A stretch of 64,000 nucleotides of DNA from Eledone cirrhosa (lineage: Eukaryota), in NCBI GenBank assembly GCA_964016885.1, contig OZ024756.1:3162001-3226000 (forward strand), read 5' to 3'. Positions 3,405 through 62,852 of the stretch are shown in pieces. A program made the position numbers and the translations under genes. Each line of letters begins with the position of its first letter. Positions within the stretch are counted from its first letter, which is position 1. The notes below the pieces were generated by a model, which did not search any database, was not told the origin of the DNA, and saw nothing but the letters and a program-made list of their open reading frames with translations.

Positions 3405-3937
3405 TTGGAGGCGGTAAAAACCAGTTAGACCATTACTCACCTGAGTACTCGATGCTTGTGGTAGTAGAGTGAGTAATATCAAAAAATTCATGACCCCGAC
3501 GGCTGAGCTCCCGCCGTTTCAACAGCTAGAAGACTAGAAATCATAGTTAATTCGCTTAACTTTTGATAAACAAAACGGTTGACTCAAGAATCATTGAGAA
3601 ACTTTGACATCGGAAATGTGTAATTCTAACACAAACTGCCATAAATAAACGGGTGTGTGGTGTGAAGTGGTGAATATATATATACATACACACAAGGTCT
3701 GAACACAAAGGAACCAAACTCCCACTGTAACTACTTCCGTCTCACTCGCTCTCTCTAGCCCTCACTATCATGAAAAGGTCCCACGCGTTGCCCCCTCCCC
3801 ATCCCCCAACCTCTAGGGACAGCCAGGATAATAGTCACTCACATAAATATTAGTTGAGAAAAATTGGGGAAATTCCCTTGGAGTCGGATATTAATAGATA
3901 TATGGGCCCCTCTCCCCACTTTTTCCTTCCTATGAGT

Positions 3938-5182: not shown

Positions 5183-6870
5183 ATTCTTTGGGAGGGTCAA
5201 GTTGCCAATAAGAAACACACGCACCAGTTGCTTTCACTTCAATTTATTATAATAAATTTATAATAAATTTATAATAAATTTATAAATTTATAAATTTCTG
5301 GTTGGTTGGTTGGTTCCACAACCAGTTAGTTGTTTATATATTGTCATAGTTCTTTTGTCACACACTATGTGACCTCTTCAGTGACTGGGGATTCCTTTCT
5401 TTGTTTCTGTGCCTCTCCTTTGTTCTGTCCTACGCCATTTTGTTTCTGTGTGTGTGTTGTGTGCTCAGTTTGCGCATGCGCCACATCCGGGTGTCTGTGT
5501 GTGTTTATGTTCATTTATTTATTTGTTTATTTACATGTTACTGGTTGGTTGTTTGTTCTATGTGTGTGTGTGTTTTCATATTGTCCTTAGTTGTAAGTTG
5601 TGATGTTGCTGTTCCACTCATATTTTCTATTTAATTTTGGTTGTAATTCTTTTATATTTATTGCCTCTGTAATTTGTCTAAACATTGCGTCTTTTCTGTG
5701 TGTAGATTCTATTTTTATTTCTATGTTCTCTAATTTAACCTTGTGTTCTATTTTAGCATGTTGGTAGAGTACAGATGATTCTTTACTATCTTGAAGGTCT
5801 CGCCAGTGTTCATTTATCCGTTCCCCTACACTACGAGCTGTCTCACCTATGTACACTATATTTTTGTCTCTACATTGTCCTTCAGTACATCTTATGCTAT
5901 ACACTACATTTCTAGTTTTACAGTTAATATGGGGGCTTATTTTACAGGTTATACATTTCTTATCTATACATGAGTGTCTTTGAAAAGGGTATGTCTTGCT
6001 AATAAGTGTTTTTACGGAGGTACCTGGTCTTTCTACTATCTTAATATTGAGTTTATGTTTATTTAGGGCCCTTCTAAATTTGTAAGTTAATTCACCTCTA
6101 GGGGTTGTATCGATGAACATTACACTCTGGTATTTATTGCTATCATACCATGAGTTTATTCTATTAGCCTTGTTCCTAGTTCTTTCTATTCTATTCCAAA
6201 ATTTGCTCCTATACAAGGGGCAGGTCCCATTTATGTCATTATTTACCATTTTTTCCCATTTGGTTTTGGCTCCTCTATACACTCTGATTTTATCTCTCTG
6301 ATTGTAGCCAGAGAACTGCATACGGTGGATGAAGTGTTGTATGTGTCTCTCTAGTTCTTCGGGGTTGCACATGCGGGACACATTTCTCATCACCCGTACC
6401 AAATCCGCAATCAGTATGTTGATTTTGGTATGGTCCGAAACGGCCGAGTTTCGGTGGATCAGATGTTTGGAAGTCATGGGTTTGGCATAATGGGAATGGA
6501 GGATTTGTTTTTTGTTATTAATGGTATCTAACCAGAGCCCTGTGTCTAGTACAGGTAATCGATGGTTGGGGTGTTTACTAGGGTAGTCTATAGTAACTCT
6601 AATGCTCTGGTGGATGGAGTTAGCTATTTGCTGGATGCTTTCCATTGTGTTTTTCTCTAGTTCCTGACTGTTCTCTAGTTGGGTTGTCTTAACTACGATG
6701 TTTATATCATCAACGTAGCGGGAGTACATTATCAGGGTTAAGGAGTCTTCTCATTGTTCTTTAAGCTTATAGGTAGGAGCAGCCATTGGTGTTAGCATTG
6801 CAGGCGACATAGCTAACTTATTCATGGTATGGTGGGACAGTAGACTTAAATTTAAGCTTAAAGAACAATT
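5177..6870 (-). mobile_element. Penelope-like element family A, 5'-truncated copy with a short 5' inversion (about 6773-6870)
   Basis: Near-identical to 9330-10930. Its 3' end runs into (TA)n. The 5' end carries about 100 bp of the adjacent RT region in the opposite orientation. Confidence 0.9.
5587..6729 (-). pseudogene. PLE-A RT C-terminus + GIY-YIG endonuclease fragment
   Basis: YSRYVDD RT motif, CxxxxCxxC linker, and VVYSIRC...YIGET..R..EH GIY-YIG motif. Confidence 0.9.
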
Positions 6871-9270: not shown

Positions 9271-12200
9271 ATTTCGTTTCTGAATTTGTTTAGCAAGATT
9301 CTTTATCTGAAATCGTGTGTTGAAACCGATATTGTTATACTTTGGGAGGGTCATGTTGCCTATAAGAAACACACGCACCAATTGCTTTCACTTCAATTTA
9401 TTATATATTTATAAATTTATAAATTTACAAATCTACAAACCTATAAATTTCTGGTTGGTTGGTTGGTTCCACAACCAGATAGTTGTTTATATATAGTCAT
9501 AGTCCTTTCGTCACACACTCTGTGACCTCTTCAGTGACTGGGGATTCCTTTCTTCGTTTCTGTGCCTTTCCTTTCTTCTGTCCTACGCCATTTTGTTTCT
9601 GTGTGTGTGTTGTGTGCTCAGTTTGCGCATGCGCCACATCCGGGTGTCTGTGTGTGTTTGTGTTCATTTATCTATTTGTTTATTTATTTACATGTTGTTG
9701 GTTGGTTGTTTGTTCTATGTGTGTGTGTGTTTTCATTTTGTCCTTAATTGTAAGTTGTGATGTTGCTGTTCCACTCATATTTTCTATTTAATTTTGGTTG
9801 TAATTCTTTTATGCTTACTGCCTCTGTAATTTGCCTAAACATTGCATCTTTTCTGTGTGTGGATTCTATTTTTATTTCTATGTTCTCTAATTTACCCTTG
9901 TGTTCTATCTTAGCATGTTGGTAGAGTACAGATGATTCTTTATTATCTTGAAGGTCTCGCCAGTGTTCATTTATCCGTTCCCCTATACTACGAGCTGTCT
10001 CACCTATGTACACTATATTTTTGTTTCTACATTGTCCTTCAGTACATCTTATGCTATACACTACATTTCTAGTTTTACAGTTAATATGGGGGTTTATTTT
10101 AGAGGTTATACATTTCTTATCTATACATGAGGGTCTTTGCAACGGGTATGTCTTGCTAATAAGTGTTTTTATGGAGGTACCTGGTCTTTCTACTATCTTA
10201 ATATTGAGTTTATGTTTATTTAAGGCCCTTCTAAATTTGTAGGCTAGGTCGCCTCTAGGGGTTGTATTGATGAACATTACACTCTGGTATTTATTGCTAT
10301 CATACCATGAGTTTATTCTATTGGCCTTGTTCCTAGTTCTTTCTATTCTATTCCAAAATTTGCTCCTATACAAGGGGCAGGTCCCATTTATGTCATTATT
10401 TCCCATTTTTTCCCATTTGGTTCTGGCTCCTCTATACACTCTGATTCTATCTCTCTGATTGTAGCCAGAGAACTGCATACGGTGGATGAAGTGTTGTATG
10501 TGTCTCTCTAGTTCTTCGGGGTTGCACATGCGGGACACATTTCTCATCACCCGTACCAAATCCGCAATCAGTATGTTGATTTTGGTATGGTCCGAAATTG
10601 CCGAGTTTCGGTGGATCAGATGTTTGGAAGTCATGGGTTTGGCATAATGGGAATGGAGGATTTGTTTTTGGTTGTTAATGGTATCTAACCAGAGCTCTGT
10701 GTCTAGTACAGGTAATCGATGGTTGGGGTGTCTACTTGGGTAGTCTATAGTAACTCTAATGCTCTGGTGGATGGAGTTTGCTATTTGCTGGATGCTTTCC
10801 ATTGTGTGTTTTTCTCTAGTTCCTGACTGTTCTCTAGTGGGGGTGTCTTAACTACGATGTTTATATCATCTACGTAGCGGGAGTACATTATCAGGGTTAA
10901 GCTGTCTTCTAATTGTTCTTTAAGTTTAAGTTTAAGTCTACTGTCCCACCATACCATGAATAAGTTAGCTATGTCGCCTGCAATGCTAACGCCAATGTCT
11001 GCTCCTTCCTCTTGGGCATATGTTTTACCATTAAATTTGAACATATGTTCCTTAAGGGTTAATTTTATGCTGGCCCCTACCGCATGTGCAATCATTTTCT
11101 TCAGTTTATCGTGGTTTTCGGGTGTCCGTATGGCTCTGGTCCACCCGTTCCATCTAACTGTGTGGATTTTCTTGGCCATTGAGGTAATGGTAGGTGGTCT
11201 GCCTCTTGCTGGTCTTGTAGGGCACAGGTTGCTAAGGTCATAAGTGTCTAGGTAACTATTACTATGGGTAAGCTTAAGTAGAAGTCCCAGCTCACTGGTA
11301 TCAATCCCACGGAACTCAACCTTGCTCTCGCTGACCATTTCTACGCATTTCTCCACAGCAAAATCCACGTCAATAGATGGATACAGGGACACAACATCCA
11401 TACTGCCTTTTATGCAGTTTGTTAGGTCCCCAGATAGGTTACTCACGCCGATTCTGCTGAGGAGGTCCTCCGTGCTGTCACATACATCTGGGGACATCTC
11501 AATGATGGGGCGTATGATCAGGGAGAGGAAGTAGGACAGTCTGTAGTTACTAGCAATGTTAGCTCCACAGACTGGCCGTGTTGGTGGTCCCGCGACAGGG
11601 TCACAGCCCGTTTTATGGTCTTTTCGAAGCCCATACAACGCCGGCACGTCATTGTTCCAGGCCTGGAAGTTGTTGGCAGTCCTTTTGTTGGGCTGCATTT
11701 TATTCGTCCACATCACCATATGGGCATTGAGGGCTTTTTCTCTATCCTCATGCTCCTGTGGTGTTACCTCTCTTGTGTTAGTGATGTGGGGTTGCATTGC
11801 CTGGATGTAGTTTGGCAGGCTGTCAACCGACATTCTGCCGGACTTGTCTGTTGAAAAGCATGCTATCTCTCCATTACGTGAGCGCTGCATGAGCTTACGC
11901 AAGCCATTTGCAGATTTTTCTCTCAGTTGCTGGGCCTCTATTCTATTATGCTTCTTGCTATACTGTTCTATAATATTTCTAAGTTCGGATTTAGCTATAC
12001 TAAATTGTGCTTCTGTTTGTTCATCGACCTGCGACGGCAACTGCGTGCGTTTGTTAAATGGTAAAGTCGTGGCGTGGACTCGTCGCAGGTCGAATGATTT
12101 ATCGGAGGGATTATAAAACGGAGAGTTCCAGGCTGCTGCTTTATGTGTACTAGTGCTATTGTTATTGTTAGTTGTGTTGTTTCTATTTCTATTTCCACCA

Positions 12201-14488
12201 ACAGCCTCATGGTTGTTTCTATGTCTCTCATAATTCCTCCTGTCTCTTTCCACTGGCTCAATGTTGTTATCTACCCTATTTTGTGTGTCTGTGTGTTCGT
12301 CTTGGTTATTCTCTTTGTCCTTAGTCTCCCATCTCCTTTTCCTTTTAATCTTATTACTTTCCCTTATTTCTCTGATTTCTATGCTACTGTCATTACTTGT
12401 TTTCTGTGTCTGTGTGTTTGTTAAGATTGTGGTGGTGGTGAGAGGCATTGAATGCGTGTGTGTTGTTGTTGATGTGTGCTGTTGTTGATGTGTGTTGTTG
12501 TTGTCTCCGTGTGTGTTATCGTTGTTGTGTGTGTTGTTATTGTTGTTTGTGTCTGCGTGTCTGCGTGTCTGTTGTTGTTGTTTGTGGGTATGTTGCTATT
12601 GTTGTTGTTGTTGATGTGTGTGTTGTTGTTATTGTTGTTTGTGTCTGTGTGTCTGTTGTTGTTGGGATGTGTGTTGTATATGTGTGTGCGTATATTGTTG
12701 CTTTTGTTTTTGATGCTCCAGCGTAGTTTTGTAAATGATTTTTCTATTTCTGACAGACAACTAATCATATTTACCTTCTTGAATGTCGCAAATTTCGGCG
12801 GCAAATGTAACACAGACATTTCATCCTTATCTATTTTTGTGTTCCCATAAATGTTGGTGTTTTTGTTGTTGAACTCTTCTGATAATGAGGTGTCGGCCAT
12901 GTTGATACCGTCAATTTTGTTGGGATATCTATTGGTATACTCTATAGTATCCTGATTTAGCTTTGCGTATTTAAGCCACTTTAGTTTCCTGTTAAAGTGC
13001 TTATCACATTCTTGAGTAATGTACTGTTCTTCGGGGCGTATAAGGCTTATAAATATTAGTTTCTCTGTTGGTGTGGTGATTCTAGCTATTTCTTGTATTA
13101 GGTTACGCTTTTGTTTTTCTTGATGACTTAATTCTCTATAGATCTTCTTTTTTATGTTTAGAATTAAAGTTCGTTTTAGCCTATCTGCTTCTAACGTCGG
13201 TATTGATGGTGTTGGTGTAGATTCTAGAAGAGGCACAGAGCTTTATGAAGGATAGTTGTCGAGATGTTATGGTTTTTCGTAGACAACAGAACATGGTGGT
13301 TTTGAGTATCTTGTTAGCCTGGCTAAGGCTTACGATATTTCGTTTCTGAATTTGTTTAGCAAGATTCTTTATCTGAAATCGTGTGTTGAAACCGATATTG
13401 TTATACTTTGGGGGGGTCATGTTGCCAATAAGAAACACACGCACCAGTTGCTTTCACTTCAATTTATTATATATTTATAAATTTATAAATTTATAAATCT
13501 ACAACCCTATAAATTTCTGGTTGGTTGGTTGGTTTCACAACCAGATAGTTGTTTATATATAGTCATAGTCCTTTCGTCACACACTCTGTGACCTCTTCAG
13601 TGACTGGGGATTCCTTTCTTCGTTTCTGTGCTTTTCCTTTCTTCTGTCCTACGCCATTTTGTTTCTGTGTGTGTGTTGTGTGCTCAGTTTGCGCATGCGC
13701 CACATCCGGGTGTCTGTGTGTGTTTGTGTTCATTTATCTATTTGTTTATTTATTTACATGTTGTTGGTTGGTTGTTTGTTCTATGTGTGTGTGTGTTTTC
13801 ATTTTGTCCTTAATTGTAAGTTGTGATGTTGCTGTTCCACTCATATTTTCTATTTAATTTTGGTTGTAATTCTTTTATGCTTACTGCCTCTGTAATTTGC
13901 CTAAACATTGCATCTTTTCTGTGTGTGGATTCTATTTTTATTTCTGTTCTTTAATTTACCCTTGTGTTCTATCTTAGCATGTTGGTAGAGTACAGATGAT
14001 TCTTTATTATCTTGAAGGTCTCGCCAGTGTTCATTTATCCGTTCCCCTATACTACGAGCTGTCTCACCTATGTACACTATATTTTTGTTTCTACATTGTC
14101 CTTCAGTACATCTTATGCTATACACTACATTTCTAGTTTTACAGTTAATATGGGGGCTTATTTTACAGGTTATACATTTCTTATCTGTACATGAGGGTCT
14201 TTGGAACGGGTATGTCTTGCTAATAAGTGTTTTTATGGAGGTACCTGGTCTTTCTACTATCTTAATATTGAGTTTATGTTTATTTAGGGCCCTTCTAAAT
14301 TTGTAGGCTAGTTCGCCTCTAGGGGTTGTATTGATGAACATTACACTCTGGTATTTATTGCTATCATACCATGAGTTTATTCTATTGGCCTTGTTCCTAG
14401 TTCTTTCTATTCTATTCCAAAATTTGCTCCTATACAAGGGGCAGGTCCCATTTATGTCATTATTTCCCATTTTTTCCCATTTGGTTCT
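9271..14488 (-). mobile_element. Penelope-like element family A, full-length unit preceded by a partial tandem copy (pLTR-ORF-pLTR)
   Basis: 13337-14488 duplicates 9271-10425 as a direct repeat around an RT-GIY-YIG ORF. An HHR sits in each repeat. The 3' end abuts (TA)n. Confidence 0.93.
9744..13420 (-). pseudogene. PLE-A polyprotein (N-terminal region, Asn/Thr-rich insert, RT, GIY-YIG), broken by about 3 frameshifts
   Basis: Consecutive overlapping ORFs 13181-13444, 12421-13236, 10781-12448 and 9744-10802. Motifs: TDKSG, LYGLRKDHK, RPV, MDVVSLYPSI, RYVDD, YIGET. Likely start is MTPPK at 13420. Confidence 0.88.
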
Positions 14489-14680
14489 TATGAGAGACAT
14501 AGAAACAACCATGAGGCTGTTGGTGGAAATAGAAATAGAAACAACACAACTAACAATAACAATAGCACTAGTACACATAAAGCAGTAGCCTGGAACTCTC
14601 CGTTTTATAATCCCTCCGATAAATCAAACGACCTGCGACGAGTCCACGCCACGACTTTACCATTTAACAAACGCACGCAG

Positions 14681-16973
14681 TTGCCGTCGCAGGTCGATGA
14701 ACAAACAGAAGCACAATTTAGTATAGCTAAATCCGAACTTAGAAATATTATAGAACAGTATAGCAAGAAGCATAATAGAATAGAGGCCCAGCAACTGAGA
14801 GAAAAATCTGCAAATGGCTTGCGTAAGCTCATGCAGCGCTCACGTAATGGAGAGATAGCATGCTTTCCAACAGACAAATCCGGCAGAATGTCGGTTGACA
14901 GCCTGCCAAACTACATCCAGGCAATGCAACCCCACATCACTCACACAAGAGAGGTAACACCACAGGAGCATGAGGATAGAGAAAAAGCCCTCAATGCCCA
15001 TATGGTGATGTGGACGAATATAATGCAGCCCAACAAAAGGACTGCCAACAACTTCCAGGCCTGGAACAATGACGTGCCGGCGTTGTATGGGCTTCGAAAA
15101 GACCATAAAACGGGCTGTGACCCTGTCGCGGGACCACCAACACGGCCAGTCTGTGGAGCTAACATTGCTAGTAACTACAGACTGTCCTACTTCCTCTCCC
15201 TGATCATACGCCCCATCATTGAGATGTCCCCAGATGTATGTGACAGCACGGAGGACCTCCTCAGCAGAATCGGCGTGAGTAACCTATCTGGGGACCTAAC
15301 AAACTGCATAAAAGGCAGTATGGATGTTGTGTCCCTGTATCCATCTATTGACGTGGATTTTGCTGTGGAGAAATGCGTAGAAATGGTCAGCGAGAGCAAG
15401 GTTGAGTTCCGTGGGATTGATACCAGTGAGCTGGGACTTCTACTTAAGCTTACCCATAGTAATAGTTACCTAGACACTTATGACCTTAGCAACCTGTGCC
15501 CTACAAGACCAGCAAGAGGCAGACCACCTACCATTACCTCAATGGCCAAGAAAATCCACACAGTTAGATGGAACGGGTGGACCAGAGCCATACGGACACC
15601 CGAAAACCACGATAAACTGAAGAAAATGATTGCACATGCGGTAGGGGCCAGCATAAAATTAACCCTTAAGGAACATATGTTCAAATTTAATGGTAAAACA
15701 TATGCCCAAGAGGAAGGAGCAGCCATTGGCGTTAGCATTGCAGGCGACATAGCTAACTTATTCATGGTATGGTGGGACAGTAGACTTAAACTTAAACTTA
15801 AAGAACAATTAGAAGACAGCTTAACCCTGATAATGTACTCCCGCTACGTAGATGATATAAACATCGTAGTTAAGACACCCCCACTAGAGAACAGTCAGGA
15901 ACTAGAGAAAAACACAATGGAAAGCATCCAGCAAATAGCAAACTCCATCCACCAGAGCATTAGAGTTACTATAGACTACCCAAGTAGACACCCAACCATC
16001 GATTACCTGTACTAGACACAGAGCTCTGGTTAGATACCATTAACAACCAAAAACAAATCCTCCATTCCCATTATGCCAAACCCATGACTTCCAAACATCT
16101 GATCCACCGAAACTCGGCAATTTCGGACCATACCAAAATCAACATACTGATTGCGGATTTGGTACGGGTGATGAGAAATGTGTCCCGCATGTGCAACCCC
16201 GAAGAACTAGAGAGACACATACAACACTTCATCCACCGTATGCAGTTCTCTGGCTACAATCAGAGAGATAGAATCAGAGTGTATAGAGGAGCCAGAACCA
16301 AATGGGAAAAAATGGGAAATAATGACATAAATGGGACTGCCCCTTGTATAGGAGCAAATTTTGGAATAGAATAGAAAGAACTAGGAACAAGGCCAATAGA
16401 ATAAACTCATGGTATGATAGCAATAAATACCAGAGTGTAATGTTCATCAATACAACCCCTAGAGGCGAACTAGCCTACAAATTTAGAAGGGCCCTAAATA
16501 AACATAAAGTCAATATTAAGATAGTAGAAAGACCAGGTACCTCCATAAAAACACTTATTAGCAAGACATACCCGTTCCAAAGACCCTCATGTATAGATAA
16601 GAAATGTATAACCTGTAAAATAAGCCCCCATATTAACTGTAAAACTAGAAATGTAGTGTATAGCATAAGATGTACTGAAGGACAATGAAGAAACAAAAAT
16701 ATAGTGTACATAGGTGAGACAGCTCGTAGTATAGGGGAACGGATAAATGAACACTGGCGAGACCCTTCAAGATAATAAAGAATCATCTGTACTCTACCAA
16801 CATGCTAAGATAGAACACAAGGGTAAATTAGAGAACATAGAAATAAAAATAGAATCCACACACAGAAAAGATGCAAGTTTAGGCAAATTACAGAGGCAGT
16901 AAGCATAAAAGAATTACAACCAAAATTAAATAGAAAATATGAGTGGAACAGCAACATCACAACTTACAATTAA
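14681..16973 (+). pseudogene. PLE-A RT + GIY-YIG with frameshifts and one in-frame stop
   Basis: ORFs 14681-16015, 16084-16374 and 16344-16688 are nearly identical in protein to the minus-strand copy. Confidence 0.88.
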
Positions 16974-17175
16974 GGGACAAAATGAAAACACACACACACA
17001 TAGAACAAACAACCAACCAACAACATGTAAATACATAAACAAATAGATAAATGAACACAAACACACACAGACACCCGGATGTGGCGCATGCGCAAACTGA
17101 GCACACAACACACACAGAAACAAAATGGCGTAAAACAGAAGAAAGGAAAGCACAGAAACGAAGAAAGGAATCCCC

Positions 17176-17220
17176 AGTCACTGAAGAGGTCACAGAGTGT
17201 GTGACGAAAGGACTATGACT
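17176..17220 (+). ncRNA. PLE-A pLTR hammerhead (also minus 9495-9539, 13561-13605, 19910-19954, mutated 5342-5386; plus 20063-20107)
   Basis: AGTCA-CTGAAGA-gGTCAC-agagtgt-GTGAC-GAAA-GGAC-TA-TGACT. Minimal HHRs in pLTRs are an established PLE feature. Confidence 0.85.
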
Positions 17221-17413
17221 ATATATAAACAACTATCTGGTTGTGGAACCAACCAACCAACCAGAAATTTATAGGTTTGTAGATTTATAAATTTATAAAT
17301 TTATAAATATATAATAAATTGAAGTGAAACAACTGTGTGCGTGTGTTTCTTATTGGCAACATGACCCTCCCAAAGTATAACAATATATATATATATATAT
17401 ACTTATATATATG

Positions 17414-18036: not shown

Positions 18037-18236
18037 CCAAGTATGACCCCGACGGCAGAGCTCAAGCCCTTTCGACGGCTAATTCTGGACTAAACAGTCC
18101 AGAATTAACCGTCGAAACGGCTTGAACTCTGTCGTCGGGGTCATACTTGTTCTATCACCCACTCTACTACCCTAAGTATTGAGTACTTTGGTGCGTTATG
18201 GTCCACCTGGTTCCTTACCACATTTTTTTCGTTATA
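18037..18236. mobile_element. Fold-back element family H15 (also 23699-23910, 62671-62856; single arm 3400-3530; fragments 21231-21283, about 63790-63880)
   Basis: GACCCCGACGGC..GCCGTCGGGGTC palindrome plus a tail with TAAGTATTGAGTACT. Contains only the 3' half of an HHR (GAAA-CGGC..GCCG-TC-GGGG). Confidence 0.8.
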
Positions 18237-18540: not shown

Positions 18541-19697
18541 AACATACATACATGTATATTTGTGTGTGTGTGTGTTTGCACACAGGAACCGGCGAGTGTG
18601 TCTGTATAGTTTGTGTGTATATGTATGTAGAAGTATAAAACATATGTATTAAATCATTTAGCATATAAATACGAAACAATTTAGCGAATTACTGGGGCAT
18701 AGATGAATACGTCGAGAGAAATTAAAAGATATTAGCTCTTTGAAGCTGATCTGACACAATCAGCCACACACCTCCCACACAGCCCGTTCCATTTGAATAT
18801 AGCATATAACTGTGTAAGGAGGAAGTTTACTATTATTCATATATATATAAGTATGTATACGTACATACATATATGTATACAGACGTACAGTAGTATGTAT
18901 ATATATACATACATGCACACATATATATATATACGTATGGATTTACCGAGTATTTATTATAATGCTCGGTTTGTTTGTAAACAAACATCCCGTATTAAGC
19001 CGTACAGTGTTTAGCAACCATCGTTGCCCTTTTGTTCAACACTGACAAAGGAACGATGTACTAGTTTCAAGCTTATTAGCTATCGTCTGCACTGTATACC
19101 TTCCTGCCAGATGATTGAACGTCTGAAAGTATATATTTTCCTTATGTATATTAACGGCTGAGCAGCCTAATTTGCATATCGAATGAGTTAATCGGCCGAG
19201 ATTAACAGATTGAAGTTTAAGCAAAGAATCTGTGCTTTCACCCTTAACGGTATCTTCTTAAATTAAGAAAATCAATCTGTGAACGCAGAAGTAAATATTT
19301 CGATAGACGTTGCAACCGAAAGAAAACAGGAAGACCATACTTTGGTATGACTCCATGTATGACATTAACGTGGTTTATCTTTGCCTATATTTGTTCTCAT
19401 CGGTCCACATAACGACGTATTATCTTCGCTTTTTCCGCTCATTGCCAGGGAACGTCTTCACGAACCAAAGTATCGTCTTCCTGTGTTCCTCCGGTTGCAA
19501 GGTTTTTCGAAATATTTACTTCTGCGTTCACAGATTAATTTTATTTAGTCTCAGAAGATCCCGTTAAGGGTGAAAGCAGCGATTATTTGCTTAAACTTTA
19601 ATCTGTTATTTTAATAAATATTTGCTCTAGGGTTCTTATATATATTATACTTATCGAGCCCTCTTTGGGTTTTAGTCGTCAAATTTAGTATTATTAC

Positions 19698-19750
<53 letters not shown>

Positions 19751-19756
<6 letters not shown>

Positions 19757-20328
19757 ATACTTTGGGAGGGTCATGTTGCCAATAAGAAACACACGCACCA
19801 GTTGCTTTCACTTCAATTTAATTTAATATATATTTATAAATTTACAAATTTATAAATTTCTGGTTGGTTGGTTGGTTCCACAACCAGATAGTTGTTTATA
19901 TATATATATAGTCATAGTTCTTTCGTCACACACTCTGTGACCTCTTCAGTGACTGGGGATTTCTTTCTTCGTTTCTGTGCCTTTCCTTTCTTCTATCCTA
20001 CGCCATTTAAATGGCGTAGGATAGAAGAAAGGAAAGGCACAGAAACGAAGAAAGAAATCCCAAGTCACTGAAGAGGTCACAGAGTGTGTGACGAAAGAAC
20101 TATGACTATATATATATATAAACAACTATCTGGTTGTGGAACCAACCAACCAACCAGAAATTTATAAATTTGTAAATTTATAAATATATATTAAATTAAA
20201 TTGAAGTGAAAGCAACTGGTGCGTGTGTTTCTTATTGGCAACATGACCCTCCCAAAGTATAACAATATCGGTTTCAACACACGATTTCAGATAAAGAATC
20301 TTGCTAAACAAATTCAGAAACGAAATAT
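19751..20328. mobile_element. Non-coding fold-back derivative of the PLE-A pLTR
   Basis: Near-perfect palindrome centred at CGCCATTTAAATGGCG (about 20008), arms about 258 bp, flanked by (TA)n on both sides. Confidence 0.9.
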
Positions 20329-22381: not shown

Positions 22382-22438
<57 letters not shown>

Positions 22439-22611
22439 CAGTAATAATAATAAATTTGAAGACAAAATCTAAAGAGGGCTCGATAAGGATAAATATATAT
22501 CATATATATAAGAACCGTAGAGCAAATAGTTATTAAAATAACAGATTAAGCAAAGAATCGCTTCGCTGCTTTCACCCTTAACGGGATCTTCTGAAACTAA
22601 ATATATATATA

Positions 22612-23241: not shown

Positions 23242-23318
<77 letters not shown>

Positions 23319-23437
23319 TTTTTTTCCCGTTCTTTGCCAGGGAACGTTTCCACGAACCAAAGTATCGTCTTCCTGTCTTCCTCCGGTTGCTACGTTTTTT
23401 GAAATATTCACTTCTGTGTTCACAGATTGACTTTGTT

Positions 23438-23488
23438 AGTTTCAGAAGATCCCGTTAAGGGTGAAAGCAACGATTCTTTGCTTAAACT
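23438..23488 (+). ncRNA. Hammerhead-like motif with CAGAAGA core, family H7 (also 19547-19597, 38520-38569; minus about 22550-22598, 37661-37711, 38812-38862, decayed about 19214-19264)
   Basis: AGTTT-CAGAAGA-tCCCgttaaGGGt-GAAA-GCA..TGC-TT-AAACT. All three stems pair, but the core has A at position 4. Confidence 0.65.
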
Positions 23489-23595
23489 TTAATCTGTTAT
23501 TTTAATAAATATTTGCTCTACGGTTCTTATATATTTGATATATATTTATCCTTATCGAGCCCTCTTTGGATTTTAGTCTTCAAATTTATTATTAT

Positions 23596-23700
<105 letters not shown>

Positions 23701-23907
23701 AAAATGTTTAACCCCGACGACAGATCTCAACCTGTTCCGACGGCTATTTCTGGACGGACGGCTTTCCTAGAGTCCAGAAATAGCCGTCGAAACGGCTTGA
23801 GCTCTGCCGTCGGGGTTAAACTTTATCCCATTACTCACTCTACTAACCTAAGTATTGAGTACTCTGGTGCCTTATGGTCCATCTGGTTTCTTACCACACT
23901 CCCTTCG

Positions 23908-25542: not shown

Positions 25543-25654
<112 letters not shown>

Positions 25655-25785
25655 GTGAGGTTTTTTTTACAAAATGAGAAATAACCGATGTGTCCTACAC
25701 GAGTGGATGTATAAAGAAAAAGAGATGAAATCGAAAATGCAACTGAAGTCTTATTTTTTTTTAAAATATATATATTTATTTGGTT

Positions 25786-25823
25786 CCTTTACCGGTTTCG
25801 CAGTTCTTCTGCTTTTCAAAAGG
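25786..25823 (-). ncRNA. Hammerhead motif with U3-A8 core, family H10 (also about 34464-34501 plus, 43082-43119 minus)
   Basis: CCTT-TTGAAAA-GCAG-aagaa-CTGC-GAAA-CCGG-TA-AAGG. Confidence 0.7.
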
Positions 25824-25970
25824 TGAGTTGAGATGGAGGGTCTGTGGTTTTTCTCACATCTCAGATGAAAAGCAGAAGAACTGCGAAATCGGTAAAGGAA
25901 CCAAATAAATATATATATTTTTTAAAAAAATAAGACTTCAGTTGCATTTTCGATTTCATCTCTTTTTCTT

Positions 25971-26986: not shown

Positions 26987-27031
26987 AACGGTGCTGATGA
27001 TAGCTAACAAGCTTGAAACTAGTACATCGTT
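26987..27031 (+). ncRNA. Type I hammerhead motif, family H8 (related copy about 19052-19096 minus)
   Basis: AACGGTG-CTGATGA-tAGCtaacaaGCTt-GAAA-CTAG-TA-CATCGTT. Confidence 0.8.
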
Positions 27032-28589: not shown

Positions 28590-29818
28590 TTCATTTAGCT
28601 TGGGTTTGAATTTATCAATAAAATTCTTTGATTTTTCTCTTGATTTCACTTGGTCCGGGTAATTTGTAGAATGGGAATATTATAAATATTCCCTGACCAC
28701 ATGTTGCTAGATGGTTACTTAGGGGTATCTGACGGACATTTGGGTCTCTGATTTGCTGTCGGTGTACCCGTGCACGTTCCGGTAGTGCATTTCCAGTTTG
28801 ACCGACATATAGTTTTTCACAATTCGGGCATTTAATGCAGTAAATTAGATTTCTGATTTTGCAGTTCATATTTGCATTTGGAAATATTTTTCCAGTTTTT
28901 GTTTTCATATATTGAAAACAATGGATTGACATGTGCCGCATCGACTATCATTGCATTTAGATACAGTGAATGATTGGTCTTTGTTGTTAAGGTCAAACTT
29001 TGCTTTTGTTAGCAATTGCTTCAAATTTTTCGGCTGTCTTTTACTAAGAGTCAAAGATCGATCTGTGATTAAGCCTTTTTATTCATTACTTTGAGCAATG
29101 ATCGGTAGGTTTGCTTTGGCAATGTTGAAGATATTCTGGTGACATTGGTTGTGTGTCATTATAAATGGTATGACCAGTTCTTGGTTTCTTATTCCTTGGG
29201 TTGTCCTAAGTTGTTGTATAGGTATTTTTATAGCCCGCTGTATGCCATTTTCTATAAGTAGAGATGGGTATTTTTGTTTGAGTAAAAAATCTCTTAGTTC
29301 TGTTAGGCATTTGTACCTGGTATTCGTATCTTCTACAATGGTACAAATTCTTCTGGCTAGACAGTATGGGATGTTGCGTTTTGTATGAGGTGAATGGCAC
29401 GACTTAAAATTCAGATATTGATGGGTGCCTGTGTGTTTATAATATATATCCGTGGTAATGGTGGTGTCGTATTTGATTATCATTATATCTAGGAATGGTA
29501 ATTTTGTCCTACTCATCTCTTTTGTGAATTGGAGAGATGGGTGTAGGTTATTTCAGGAGGATATTGAACTCATCCAGAGTATCTAGAGATTCTGTCCAGA
29601 TGATGAAACAGTCGTCAAGGTATCTCTTCCAAGATTGTTCAATGTACTTTCTAAAATCAGTACTATATTTTTCCTCTATTTCTTGGTAGAGTTGTTGTTC
29701 TAAGTATCCCATTAAAGAGTTCGCGTAAACGGCAGCAAGCTTCGTTCCCATCGCTGTGCCTCCTATTTGGATGTAATTATTTCCATTGAAGAAGAAAATG
29801 TTGTTTTCCAGAATAAGT
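28590..29818 (-). pseudogene. PLE-B RT/thumb/GIY-YIG remnant
   Basis: ORFs 29548-29751, 29079-29516 and 28615-28941 are collinear and separated by stops or frameshifts. Confidence 0.85.
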
Positions 29819-29853
29819 TTAACTGCGTCTAATATAAATGTATAATATATATG

Positions 29854-29986
<133 letters not shown>

Positions 29987-30053
29987 TTCCAAAAGAAATG
30001 GTCGCATTCTTTAAGGTTATGTCAATATTTATTTATAAAACTGATCTATATTA

Positions 30054-34384: not shown

Positions 34385-34428
<44 letters not shown>

Positions 34429-34622
34429 TGTGAGAAGACTCACAGACCCTCCATCTCAACTCTACTTTTGAAAAGCACAAGAACTGCGAACCCGGTAAAG
34501 GAACCAAATAAATTTTTTTTTTTTTTGAAGAATCCTGTTGCAATTTCGATTTCATCATTTTTCCTTATACTTTCACTCGTGTAGGACACCTCGGTTATTT
34601 TCATTTTGTAAAAAAACCTCAC

Positions 34623-36330
<1,708 letters not shown>

Positions 36331-37567: not shown

Positions 37568-37644
<77 letters not shown>

Positions 37645-38603
37645 TAAAATAACAGATTAAAGTTTAAGCAAAGAATCGCTGCTTTCACCCTTAACGGGAT
37701 CTTCTGAAACTAACAAAGTCAATCTGTAAACGCAGAACTGGTTATTTCAAAAAATACCCGTATGTTTTGTGAAGGTATGTATACCTTCTCGTACGTATAT
37801 TTGACTGTTATAGCGTATAATTTTTACATATTTTGGTATTTAGGGTTTGGCTATGTGTATACGGGAGTTCTGCGTCCGCGTGAGTGTGCAGGTTCGTACG
37901 TATGGTGGGTGTGTGTATATGTGTACTTTTTGTTTTAGTTGACTTACGTCTCCGAACATTCGTGTATTTACATGTAGGTATGCGTGTGCGCTTGTTATAT
38001 ACGTATTTATTTACTTATCTACGTTTATATAATTATTTATTTATTTATATGTGCGTGGTTTTGTATACCCATGGTAATGTTTTGCGTATGCTTGTGTATG
38101 TACGTATCTGTTTGCGTGTATGTATTTATTTGTTTCTATTTCTTCTGTATTGTATTTATTTACTTTGTTCTTAACTCTGTAGCGGAGATTCATTTGGTCT
38201 CCTAGTTAGAATTTTAGTCTACGATTTCTGCTGTACCATTTACGTGGTTTTGTCTTTGCGTGCTATTGTTCTCCACGCTCCACATATGACTTATTATCTT
38301 CGTTTTTTCGTTCATTGCCAGAGAACGTCTCTATGCACCACCTAAGAGAACATTAGTCTACGACCTCTTTTATACCATAAACGTGGTTCTGTCTTTGCGC
38401 GTAATTGTTTTTCACCGCTCCTATTAATGACGTATTATTCGTTTTTTCCCGTTCTTTGCCAGCGAACGTTTCCACGAACCAAAGTATCGTCTTCCTGTCT
38501 TCCTCCGGTTGATTTTTATAGTTTCAGAAGATCCCGAAAAGCTGAAAGCAGCGATTCTTTGCTTAAACTTATCTGTTATTTTAATAGATAAATAAATAAA
38601 TAA

Positions 38604-38675
<72 letters not shown>

Positions 38676-39108
38676 TAAAATAACTGTTTCTACTTTAGGC
38701 ACAAGGCCAGCAATTACCCAGTGCATTACTGGTACTTTATTTTATCGACCCCGTAAGGATGAAAGGCAAAGTCAACCTCGGCGGGATTTATTTATTAAAA
38801 TAACAGATTAAAGTTTAAGCAAAGAATCGCTGCGTTCACCCTTAACGGGATCTTCTGAAACTAACAAAGTCAATCTGTAAACGCAGAACTGGATATTTCA
38901 AAAAACGTTGCAACCGGAGGAAGACAGTAAGACGATACTTTGGTTCGTGGAAACGTTCCCTGGCAAAGAACGGGAAAAAAAGAATATAATACGTCATTAA
39001 TAGGAGCGGAGAAAAACAATTACACGCAAAGACAGAACCACGTTTATGGTATAAAAGAAGTCGTAGACTAATGTTCCCTTAGGTGGTTCATAGAGACGTT
39101 CTTATTAT

Positions 39109-39178
<70 letters not shown>

Positions 39179-39610: not shown

Positions 39611-40050
39611 CTTTCGGTGAGTCATGCTGCCAATAAAAACACACGCACCTGTTAGGTTTCACTTCAATTTATAAATTTCCGGTTGGTTTGTTCAGTAACC
39701 GGAATGTTGTTTATATATTGTCAAAGTACTTTCGTCACGCATTCTATGACCTCCTCAGTTTCTAGGTTTTTATTTCGTTTCTCACCTTTGTTGTCTCCTA
39801 CACCTAAATGGTGTAGAACAGAACAAAGGAGAGACATATGTATACGTGCGTCTGTGTGTATGTCTGTATATGTGTATATATATATATACATAAATATATA
39901 TATATGTATATATATTATGTATATATATATATGTATATATGTATGCATATATAAATGTTTATATGTATATGCATACGTATGTGTCTATAAACATACATGT
40001 ATGTATATGTTTGCGTATATATATATGTGTCTATGAATGAAGTGTTTCCG

Positions 40051-42904: not shown

Positions 42905-42950
<46 letters not shown>

Positions 42951-43161
42951 AGAAAGTGAGGTTTTTTTACAAAATGAAAAATAACCGAGGTGTTATACAC
43001 GAGTGAAAGTAAGGAAAAAGGATGAAATCGAAAATGCAACTTGAGTCTTATTTATAAAAATATATATATATTTATTTGGTTCCTTTACCGGTTTCGCAGC
43101 TATTCTGCTTTTCAAAAGTAGAGTTGTGGTGGAGGGTCTGTGGTTTTTCTCACATCTGTAT

Positions 43162-43257: not shown

Positions 43258-43310
43258 GAGATTCTACAGGCCTAGAACTGTTTCATTCTTTAGAAATCAT
43301 CAGGAATCTC
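43258..43310 (-). ncRNA. Type I hammerhead motif, family H3 (also 18318-18368 minus, 18370-18414 plus, 53881-53933 plus; decayed about 6885-6925 and 54115-54210)
   Basis: GAGATTC-CTGATGA-tTTCtaaaGAAt-GAAA-CAGttctaggcCTG-TA-GAATCTC. Confidence 0.82.
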
Positions 43311-44538: not shown

Positions 44539-44585
44539 ACTGCCTGATGAGGTCATAGCCATTAAATCGAAATATATATAGCAGT
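44539..44585 (+). ncRNA. Type I hammerhead motif, H14
   Basis: ACTGC-CTGATGA-G...C-GAAA-TATATA-TA-GCAGT. Stem II is imperfect. Confidence 0.7.
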
Positions 44586-57136: not shown

Positions 57137-59197
57137 TTAAAATTTTCCCCCACAGTCGTAGGTATACGGTGTTGGCGTTTTATAGGGGGTACGGAATGCA
57201 GCGGCGAGTTGGCAACTCGCCGCCGTGGCGGACTGGTTCTGACTCTGCGAGGCAGATAAAAGGCGTTGTGATTCGAACATGTCTCTCATATTTCCAAAAG
57301 GTGATGTAGTAAAATCGGAGCTGTGATGATTCAGTTCAGACGGTGGGGGCACGTACCACGAGTTTGCTCTGGCGTATGATTGTGTGTTGGAGAACATACT
57401 GTGGGTAAGTCCGTTGGCGGTCTGGGTGAGGGCCGCCGCATGGGGGTTTGATGGGTTCATCAAATCGTGATCGCTCACAGATTGTCCCGTTGCAATGTTC
57501 ATGGATTGGCCGCCATTCGGCGAGAACACGGACTGACCGCTGCAGTGGTAGTTATAGCCGCTGTTAGCTGCTGCAGCCGCCGCCGCCGCCGCCGCCGCAG
57601 CCGCCGCCGCCGCTGTCTGAGAACACGAGGTATTTCGGTAAATGTCCGCCGCCGTGGCTACACTGGATCCCGTTGAAGACCGCGAAGACCCATACGGTAA
57701 TATCTGAGGGGACACCAATGGAGGAGGTCGGCTGTTGACGTAGTTAGAGGAGGCGGCAGCAGCTGCTGCAGCCGCAGCAACTGCAGCAGCTGAAGACATA
57801 TCACATGAGGTTGTGTGGGGTACAGTCATTAGATTTTCTACAGAGAAACTGCTTGATGTTGTGATCTCCATGTTTATAGGATCGGTTGGGATAGGTAGAG
57901 TGTTAGGGTTCGGATGCAAACGAGTGGACGACACAATCAGGCCACAATCATTGCGTGGTGAATCCATTGGTTCTAGTTTCGGTGTAGTCATTGATGTGGT
58001 AGAAGCGACTTCAACAGCAGCACCACCTGTTACAGTACCGTTGCATATAACGTTAGTATTTCCTGCCAAAGAACTCGTACCTCCAGAGACTGGAGATGAT
58101 GTGTTCGGTGTTGTCTTTCGATCTTCGTTACCTGTGCTGTGGTTGTCATTTGATGCCACACGTTTGCTACTACTACTACTGCTATTGTTGTTACTGTTAC
58201 TACTGCTACTGCCGGTGTTGTTATTACCACTGGTACCATTACTGCTACTATTGTTACTGTTACCGCTGTGATGATGATGATGTTGATGATGGTTCTGTTG
58301 TTGATGGTGTTGTTGTTGCTGTTGCTGTTGCTGTTGTTGTTGTTGGCTATGGTGATGATGGTGGTGATGATGATGGTGGCTGCTGTTGTGTTGGCTGTGT
58401 GGATGATGATCATGGTGCTGTGAATGATGATGATCTGGGGAAGAACTTTCGTTCAGGGACGAGTTTTGAGATTCGGCGCAGTTGACCTCCGATGGATCAT
58501 CACCGGTACCACTGTGCCCAGTAACACCAACACTGGTCACGCCTCCCGCTGGTCCGGCACCAACACCGGAATTTCCGATCATCAAAGAGGAAGAGGATTT
58601 GTCACGTTCCTTCTGTAGTTCTATGGCCAGTTGCTTTTCACGCTCTTCGCGTTCTTTGATGGCGTCTTTCTTCTTAAACCGTTTTCTCCTGCGTAAATAA
58701 CTTCCATTATCAAACATATTATAGCTATCTGGGTCTAGAGTCCAATAGCTCCCCTTCCCTGGTTTCTTATCGTCTCTTGCTACTTTTATAAAACATTCAT
58801 TGAGGGACAAATTATGACGAATACTGTTCTGCCAGCCCTGTTTGTTTTCACGGTAGAATGGGAAGCGTTCCATAATGAACTGGTAAATCCCGTTCAACGT
58901 TATTTTCTTATCGGGCTGGCTTTTAATGGCCATAGCTATTAGGGCTATATAACTATAGGGTGGTTTCACCATATCTTTGGCACCATGGTGAGCTGGTGCA
59001 TAAGGACTAGCATATATGGATGGCCCTCGACTCATCGCTCCGTATTGATCGTGTCCATACATTGCCATACCACCCATGGACATGCCAGCATAGGCCCCAT
59101 GTCGGTAGTAGTTTTGGTCTCCGAACAGTGTTGGAACCATGCTTAGACTCGGTCCATTTGTTGTCGGATATCTTGGTTGAAGTGTGTTTGATTGCAT
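57137..59197 (-). CDS. FoxC: Forkhead box C transcription factor, single coding exon, 686 aa
   Basis: Forkhead domain [98 protein letters not shown] matches the FoxC class. Also an eh1-like FSVENLM motif and a C-terminal YDCGGKF resembling the FoxC YDCxKF end. The ORF is uninterrupted. Confidence 0.95.
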
Positions 59198-62642: not shown

Positions 62643-62673
<31 letters not shown>

Positions 62674-62852
62674 ACGAAGGAAATGTGGTCAGGAACCAGG
62701 TGGACCATAACGCACCAAAGTACTCAATACTTAGGGTAGTCGAGTGGGTAATAGGAACAAGTAAGACCCCGACGGCTGAACTCAAGCCGTTTCGACGGTC
62801 CATAATTAGCCGTCGAAACAGCTTGAGCTCAGCCGTCGGGGTCTTACTTGTT

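Follow-up and report, generated by a model that had tools for sequence, protein, structure and literature searches.

A hammerhead-like motif with adenine at core position 4 is carried throughout a young, high-copy repeat family of Eledone cirrhosa

The described systems closest to the repeat reported here are Penelope-like elements and the non-LTR retrozymes of animals, two groups in which hammerhead ribozymes are known. As set out in the available parts of the papers cited here and below, the hammerheads of Penelope elements cleave slowly in vitro despite a canonical core, and the only core change described among them is U3-A8 (PMC4209133). The purpose of hammerheads in Penelope-like elements is left open, and they may merely parasitise these elements (PMC8557442). 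Non-LTR retrozymes consist of tandem units of 170-400 nt with a hammerhead in each and are expressed as circular RNA, and the axolotl retrozyme hammerhead HHR_Amex2 cleaves weakly and starts stem II with a U-U mismatch (PMC7229834; bioRxiv 10.64898/2026.07.22.740005).

Natural variants of the hammerhead core are also on record–for example, U4C in a viroid, A6C in phage Bcep176, U3-A8 and U15.1-A16.1 (PMC3088659, PMC7151607). U4C and A6C are weak, as are hammerheads with U10.1-U11.1 (PMC3088659, PMC7151607, PMC7229834), and a missing R10.1-Y11.1 pair is itself a documented natural exception (PMC3088659, PMC7229834). U4 touches the A6-N7 phosphate; the natural U4C change makes cleavage much slower in vitro, yet leaves enough for viroid infection, and tertiary contacts have been argued to offset core changes (PMC3088659). 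When a type III hammerhead was mutated pairwise, every single change in the CUGA turn gave low activity, and second changes there brought no rescue except in the C3-G8 swap (PMC9901934). We found no report of a natural hammerhead family with U4A in the literature searched, which was thin on subscription papers, and nothing on A4 in the available parts of PMC11014351, PMC13725137, PMC6155905 and PMC2837043.

We analysed a 64-kb window of the E. cirrhosa genome (the whole stretch of DNA, to which all positions refer), which is AT-rich and full of (TA)n runs. It contains a motif built like a type I hammerhead but with A at position 4 of the core box (hereafter the A4 motif):

23438..23488, plus strand: type I hammerhead-like motif (sequence, descriptor scan and null model)
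23443..23449, plus strand: core box CAGAAGA, whose position 4 (23444) is A (sequence and contigs of the public run X1)
23422..23497, plus strand: outer 9-bp extension of stem I (folding of family copies and compared pairs)

The motif reads, in order, AGTTT, CAGAAGA, T CCC GTTAA GGG T, GAAA, GCA(A)..(T)TGC, TT and AAACT, so that three helices surround the core and helix I is open, as in type I hammerheads. Stem I has 5 bp (23438-23442 with 23484-23488) and stem II has 3 bp (23451-23453 with 23459-23461) over a U-U mismatch. GAAA occupies 23463-23466, and stem III (23466-23470 with 23478-23482) extends 4 bp beyond the A15.1-U16.1 pair. The cleavage site is CUU, with the cut predicted after 23483. 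Outside stem I and separated from it by a 7-nt bulge on the 5' side, 23422-23430 pairs with 23489-23497 in an outer helix of 9 bp, which appears in both the MFE and centroid structures of all five family copies that were folded; one of its pairs, a G-U, is A-U and G-C in two other copies. In the comparison of the window copies 89% of the cells are paired, compared to 20-57% in slid controls.

Two features depart from the usual core. The box C3 U4 G5 A6 N7 G8 A9 is not matched, because position 4 is A in all seven core-bearing copies in the window and in at least 98% of X1 depth. Where stem II begins, a U10.1-U11.1 mismatch takes the place of the R10.1-Y11.1 pair in 7 of 7 copies, a mismatch also seen in the U4 families of the window at 26994, 28211 and 43303. 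The remaining elements, G12 A13 A14, the A15.1-U16.1 pair and H17, are all present (consensus GAAA..UU, with every other letter below 2%).

Eight pieces of this family lie in the window:

23316..23600, plus strand: whole copy between (TA)n runs, with a 5'-truncated body, the hammerhead-like motif and a 110-nt 3' tail
19346..19700, plus strand: copy with core CAGAAGA at 19552, one stem I mismatch and a complete 3' tail
19203..19346, minus strand: inverted copy, head-to-head with the 19346..19700 copy; core at 19259 reads AAGAAGA (A3, A4)
22438..22600, minus strand: copy beginning just 5' of the core at 22593, with the 3' arm of stem I deleted and a complete 3' tail
35312..35416, minus strand: eighth piece, without a core, 3' tail only
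37641..37754, minus strand: copy with an intact A4 motif, core at 37706, ending early at a (TA)n run
38208..38586, plus strand: copy with core at 38525 and stem II broken; it has two upstream subrepeats of ~137 nt and lacks 40 nt through a deletion
38789..39113, minus strand: copy with core at 38857 and GAAC in place of GAAA

The sequence-only reading of this DNA had cited six copies as CAGAAGA with a CUU site. All six do read so (19552, 23443 and 38525 on the plus strand; 22587-22593, 37700-37706 and 38851-38857 on the minus strand), and the site in 23438-23488 is CUU. Its description of the stems as largely intact holds fully for two of the seven core-bearing copies (23443 and 37706), the only ones in which every stem and GAAA are preserved. 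In the remaining five the damage affects stem I, stem II or GAAA and differs in place between copies, as expected of decay after insertion; the 19259 copy, for example, also has mismatches in stems I and II. The U10.1-U11.1 mismatch and the outer helix had escaped that reading. At its 5' end the 38789-39113 copy opens with 12 nt that match the inverted 3' end of the family. The claim that this is the most abundant hammerhead-like family was too strong, since in the window it ties at seven cores with the family of a coding Penelope-like element (eight regex matches, less the one at 44544, which is a different sequence).

To go beyond the window we used X1, in which 18,532 contigs matched the family at 80% likeness or more: 5,096 at 99% or above, 7,059 at 95-99%, 5,286 at 90-95% and 1,091 below 90%. 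An alternative letter reaches 2% of depth or more at 34 places, none of which is in 23443-23449, in 23463-23466 or in the UU of the site. A4 is therefore the consensus of the family, as had been proposed, and not U4, which would have refuted the sequence-only reading; the analysis is blind to a U4 minority below 2% of depth and to copies less than 80% alike. Eleven variants at frequencies of 12-56% define subfamilies (the set omits three further sites at which the reference copy is private), and every subfamily carries A4. Because these variants lie elsewhere in the element while A4 is fixed, several master copies probably carried A4, which would then have passed through repeated rounds of copying. 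Dividing the summed core depth by the median depth of eight long pieces gives ~2 x 10^5 copies, which is good to an order of magnitude only because sequencing depth is not a copy number; seven cores per 64 kb is of the same order if the genome is a few Gb. The window may itself derive from X1, which therefore does not count as independent evidence for A4. We compared 4 of 24 listed runs with the family, and the other three (X21, X9 and X15) gave 1, 12 and 3 records. We rejected these as cross-species support because they are trace records, and some of the X9 contigs are interrupted at GATC in the manner of ligation junctions.

None of the 11 subfamily variants falls inside the 51-nt motif, where 2.0 are expected (P = 0.11); P is 0.047 once the outer helix is included, for a region chosen after the fact. 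The 3' tail is equally poor in variants (1 observed, 4.0 expected), so the invariance of the motif does not single out the ribozyme; the entire 3' half may be either constrained or homogeneous. One minor variant, G23460A (3.4% in X1), disrupts a stem II pair, and no change in its partner reaches 2%.

The match to a hammerhead is very unlikely to be due to chance. A descriptor allowing at most one core mismatch, with stems I, II and III of at least 5, 3 and 3 bp, gave a single match when run on 60 first-order Markov copies of the window cleared of microsatellites (54.4 kb), and 1 in 20,000 shuffles of the element matched; its thresholds were taken from the A4 motif itself, which makes the null figure too favourable but still leaves a wide margin. 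The sequence-only reading had held that stems without covariation would make the fold coincidental. Covariation is indeed lacking among the seven window copies (no double-sided changes; score 0.050, compared to 0.047 when shuffled), but the shuffle null argues that the fold is not thereby coincidental, since a young and homogeneous family offers little to covary. Searches of the window with Rfam gave no matches at gathering score. The Rfam hammerhead models match neither the A4 motif nor a canonical U4 hammerhead at 43303 used as a control, which makes their silence on the A4 motif uninformative. The E-value lists of the window were microsatellite and hairpin noise and were set aside. A likeness to a CRISPR direct repeat (RF01337, DR24; 14.7 bits against a gathering score of 35, E = 1.3) was put down to chance; the copies of the A4 family are dispersed parts of a longer repeat, not a regularly spaced array with unique spacers.

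Folding was of little use for comparing A4 with U4. Z-scores of five copies were -0.9 to -2.1 for four and -3.7 for one, and in the two intact A4 copies the hammerhead fold is higher in energy than the ensemble by 3.5-4.0 kcal/mol, as against 3.3 kcal/mol in the U4 control at 43303. In a short context, exchanging A4 and U4 shifts the standing of the fold by 0.2-0.4 kcal/mol; when more flanking sequence is included, the core can pair with a U-tract upstream of it, and A4 favours this pairing by 1-4 kcal/mol in two of three copies. Because these effects are small or depend on the copy, we dropped folding as a discriminator.

Position 4 is almost always U in the other hammerhead-like sequences of the window, which form seven groups with U4 in 26 of 27 copies (the three-stem check covered some groups only). 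The exception had already been pointed out and is real:

19083..19089, minus strand: core CAGACGA (beginning at 19089) in one copy of a two-copy family, whose sibling at 26994 (plus strand) reads CTGATGA

With A4 in one of its two copies, that family gives no support for a wider trend towards A4. We also observed a U4 hammerhead family at 43303(-), 53888(+) and 18370(+) that is built like the A4 family, with a U-U mismatch, a closed stem III and an 8-nt loop. In another repeat family (25648-25968, 34425-34622 and 42949-43157), CAGAAGA is followed by a 4-bp hairpin and AAAG, and G12 and a UH site are absent; it is possibly a far-decayed hammerhead, or a chance likeness. A third (18038-18233, 23711-23898, 62673-62850 and 3413-3528) forms one long hairpin with arms of ~30-35 nt, and was rejected as a hammerhead even though GAAA is present.

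We then took a census of position 4 with one fixed stem II template in viral and phage contigs and in bacterial and archaeal genomes, whose hammerheads are of prokaryotic or phage origin and not of the Penelope type. Viral contigs yielded at least 127 matches with U4 (among the matches listed, 115 of 127 were full three-stem hammerheads and 123 were distinct), 27 with C4 (21 full), 4 with G4 (none full) and, with the same core template, none with A4. Bacterial and archaeal genomes yielded 23 with C4 (16 full) and one with A4 (not full). With relaxed A4 patterns, among the matches listed, none of 120 was full in viral contigs and one of 119 was marginal in metagenomes. The A4 family's own 26-nt pattern had no match in metagenome contigs, and a shorter version had six bacterial or archaeal matches, none of them a full hammerhead. 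The excess of C4 over A4 is partly due to U-to-C changes arising more often than U-to-A changes. As an observation in its own right, the C4 (CCGAUGA) matches were often full-stem hammerheads, 21 of 27 in phage contigs and 16 of 23 in bacterial genomes, with many of the latter from Patescibacteria, so U4C seems to be a common natural variant outside viroids.

The repeat that carries the A4 motif looks like a retroelement. All eight copies have different 5' ends, whereas four of the eight share a 3' end that lies before a (TA)n run; three others stop ~90 nt short of that end, and the last stops immediately beyond the motif. Copies are flanked by (TA)n, and neighbours are inverted, as in the head-to-head pair at 19346. 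These properties–5' truncation, a shared 3' end, inverted adjacent copies and microsatellite targets–are insertion features that PMC8557442 gives, in its available parts, for Penelope-like elements. Upstream of the motif are subrepeats of ~137 nt, and we found no long reading frame there. The eight copies include no direct tandem of hammerhead-bearing units, and the window contains no tRNA gene. We found no coding partner with the 3' end of the A4 family in the 64-kb window, whose coding elements gave one tblastn match to the family (E = 0.34), so Penelope-type mobilisation is inferred from anatomy, and the repeat is likely to be a non-autonomous Penelope-like element. The subrepeats (77% alike) can be seen at 38208-38481 and 38941-39071; a GT-rich stretch of 450 nt before the former (37755-38207) may also belong to the element.

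Coding retroelement pieces are present at 10781-12595(-), 14375-16015(+) and 5587-6750(-), one of them with a weak RVT_1 match (E = 5e-4, below the cut-off). The region 9273-17382 contains several pieces, nested and inverted, that come from a young coding Penelope-like element, with copies 94-99% alike. This element has a reverse transcriptase frame, a second frame with the stretch YIGETARS and, downstream, a canonical CUGAAGA hammerhead (9534-, 13600-, 17181+ and 5381-). We take YIGETARS to be a GIY-YIG-type motif, and Pfam calls no GIY-YIG domain there. The stem III palindrome of its hammerhead is imperfect (GGAC, GAAC), except for GTAC at 39758. At 19752-20265 two 3' ends of the same element stand head to head in a near-perfect palindrome centred on 20008/20009, and 29079-30021(-) holds fragments of a second, distantly related reverse-transcriptase element broken by (TA)n runs. 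Away from the repeats there is a single-exon forkhead box C gene at 57140-59197(-), encoding 686 amino acids with long His, Gln, Ser and Ala runs (PF00250, E = 8e-40); its best named relatives of near-full coverage are FoxC proteins of molluscs and a brachiopod, with 73-77% identity over residues 1-200, which points to a mollusc or another lophotrochozoan as the likely host. An exact look-up of the protein gave no match.

We conclude that A4 in a near-invariant core position is real and family-wide. The sequence-only reading had left two options, a tolerated natural variant or a family that spread after losing cleavage, which remains the right pair, and the census and the mutagenesis results make the evidence lean towards loss: no full A4 hammerhead of phages or bacteria was found where C4 occurs, and single mutants of the CUGA turn are low. 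The U4 found in 26 of 27 copies of the other groups in the window points the same way. Our favoured interpretation, which we think has the better chance of being correct, is that a non-autonomous Penelope-like family fixed U4A, is predicted to have largely lost cleavage, and kept transposing. U4A would have arisen a single time, in a master copy older than the separation of the subfamilies. Judging from the published structure and mutagenesis, A4 would lose the contact by which U4, touching the A6-N7 phosphate, closes the uridine turn, and cleavage would fall strongly. RNA reading through the motif would be reverse-transcribed from its 3' end into (TA)n targets, which would produce 5'-truncated and inverted copies. 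A Penelope reverse transcriptase-endonuclease would do the copying, and efficient self-cleavage would be unneeded. The youth of the family may explain why the fold persists, or else the mobilising protein may bind the 3' half. Spread without efficient cleavage would have a precedent in Naiads, which reach high copy number without canonical hammerheads (PMC8557442, available parts). Against loss of cleavage, the consensus shows no damage elsewhere in the core or in stems I and III, and the mutagenesis on which the prediction draws used a type III hammerhead, whereas the A4 motif is type I.

The main competitor, that A4 is tolerated, strikes us as rather unlikely. Cleavage would be slow, would be aided by the 14-bp stem I and a contact between its bulge and loop II, and would suffice for, or even suit, the cycle of the element. 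The intactness of 10 of 11 usual core positions and of stems I and III in the consensus, where no second core change reaches 2%, speaks for this reading, and the fold is as accessible as that of the similarly built U4 hammerhead at 43303 (3.5-4.0 and 3.3 kcal/mol). Weak natural variants exist (U4C, A6C and U10.1-U11.1), and Penelope hammerheads are slow in vitro anyway (PMC4209133), so little activity may suffice. However, full phage or bacterial hammerheads were found with C4 and not with A4, covariation is absent in the seven window copies, and G23460A (3.4%) is uncompensated at the 2% level. CUU is a weak hammerhead cleavage site. Tolerance would have to cope with three likely handicaps together, A4, U10.1-U11.1 and the CUU site. 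The model in which the motif is a working hammerhead, its long bulged stem I letting the uridine turn accept a purine in ~10^5 copies, is correspondingly doubtful.

Cleavage in trans is more improbable still. Here a rare U4 sister or an autonomous partner would supply the catalytic strand, and only the substrate half of the A4 RNA would be under selection. Penelope elements and retrozymes are known to have hammerheads that act as dimers (PMC4209133, PMC7229834), and X1 leaves room for a U4 minority below 2%, but stem III is a closed hairpin of 4-5 bp with a non-palindromic loop, whereas dimers use a short palindrome; none of the seven window copies has U4, nor does U4 reach 2% in X1, and the motif is not in tandem in the window. 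Least credible of all is a chance likeness in a MITE, SINE or Helitron-derived repeat without ribozyme ancestry, to which the lack of an Rfam hammerhead match, the mostly weak z-scores and the absent covariation would conform, but which is contradicted by the descriptor null (1 in 20,000), by Rfam also missing the canonical 43303, by a U4 family of the same build in the window (U-U at stem II, long stem III), and by retroelement-like ends in a window without tRNA genes.

A young family of ~10^5 copies that is one core position away from canonical is a natural experiment. If A4 does not cleave, efficient cleavage is dispensable for spread on this scale. If it does cleave, the core consensus and descriptors based on CUGANGA miss a class of ribozyme.

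In comparison with known systems, as described in the available parts of the papers cited, it is reasonably probable from sequence that the A4 motif works like, or descends from, the type I hammerhead of Penelope pseudo-LTRs. Like those (PMC4209133), it is a type I motif lying ~110 nt from the 3' end, in a repeat that is dispersed, truncated at its 5' end and mostly solitary, and in a genome that holds many such families together with coding Penelope elements. It differs from them in having A4 for U4, U10.1-U11.1 for G-C, no linked ORF found, and a closed stem III of 4-5 bp where theirs is minimal or palindromic. The family resembles animal non-LTR retrozymes (PMC7229834; bioRxiv 10.64898/2026.07.22.740005) in being non-coding, a few hundred nucleotides long, type I and of very high copy number, but it lacks tandem hammerhead-to-hammerhead repeats in the window and its core is non-canonical. 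With the natural core variants (PMC3088659, PMC7151607) it shares a single change in an otherwise conserved core that is kept in nature; unlike them, it has a purine at position 4, fixed in a family of ~10^5 genomic copies. The Naiad and Chlamys Penelope-like elements (PMC8557442) likewise combine high copy number and (TA)n targets with the absence of a canonical hammerhead. Those elements, however, are coding and lack the full motif, whereas the A4 family retains the whole motif with one core change.
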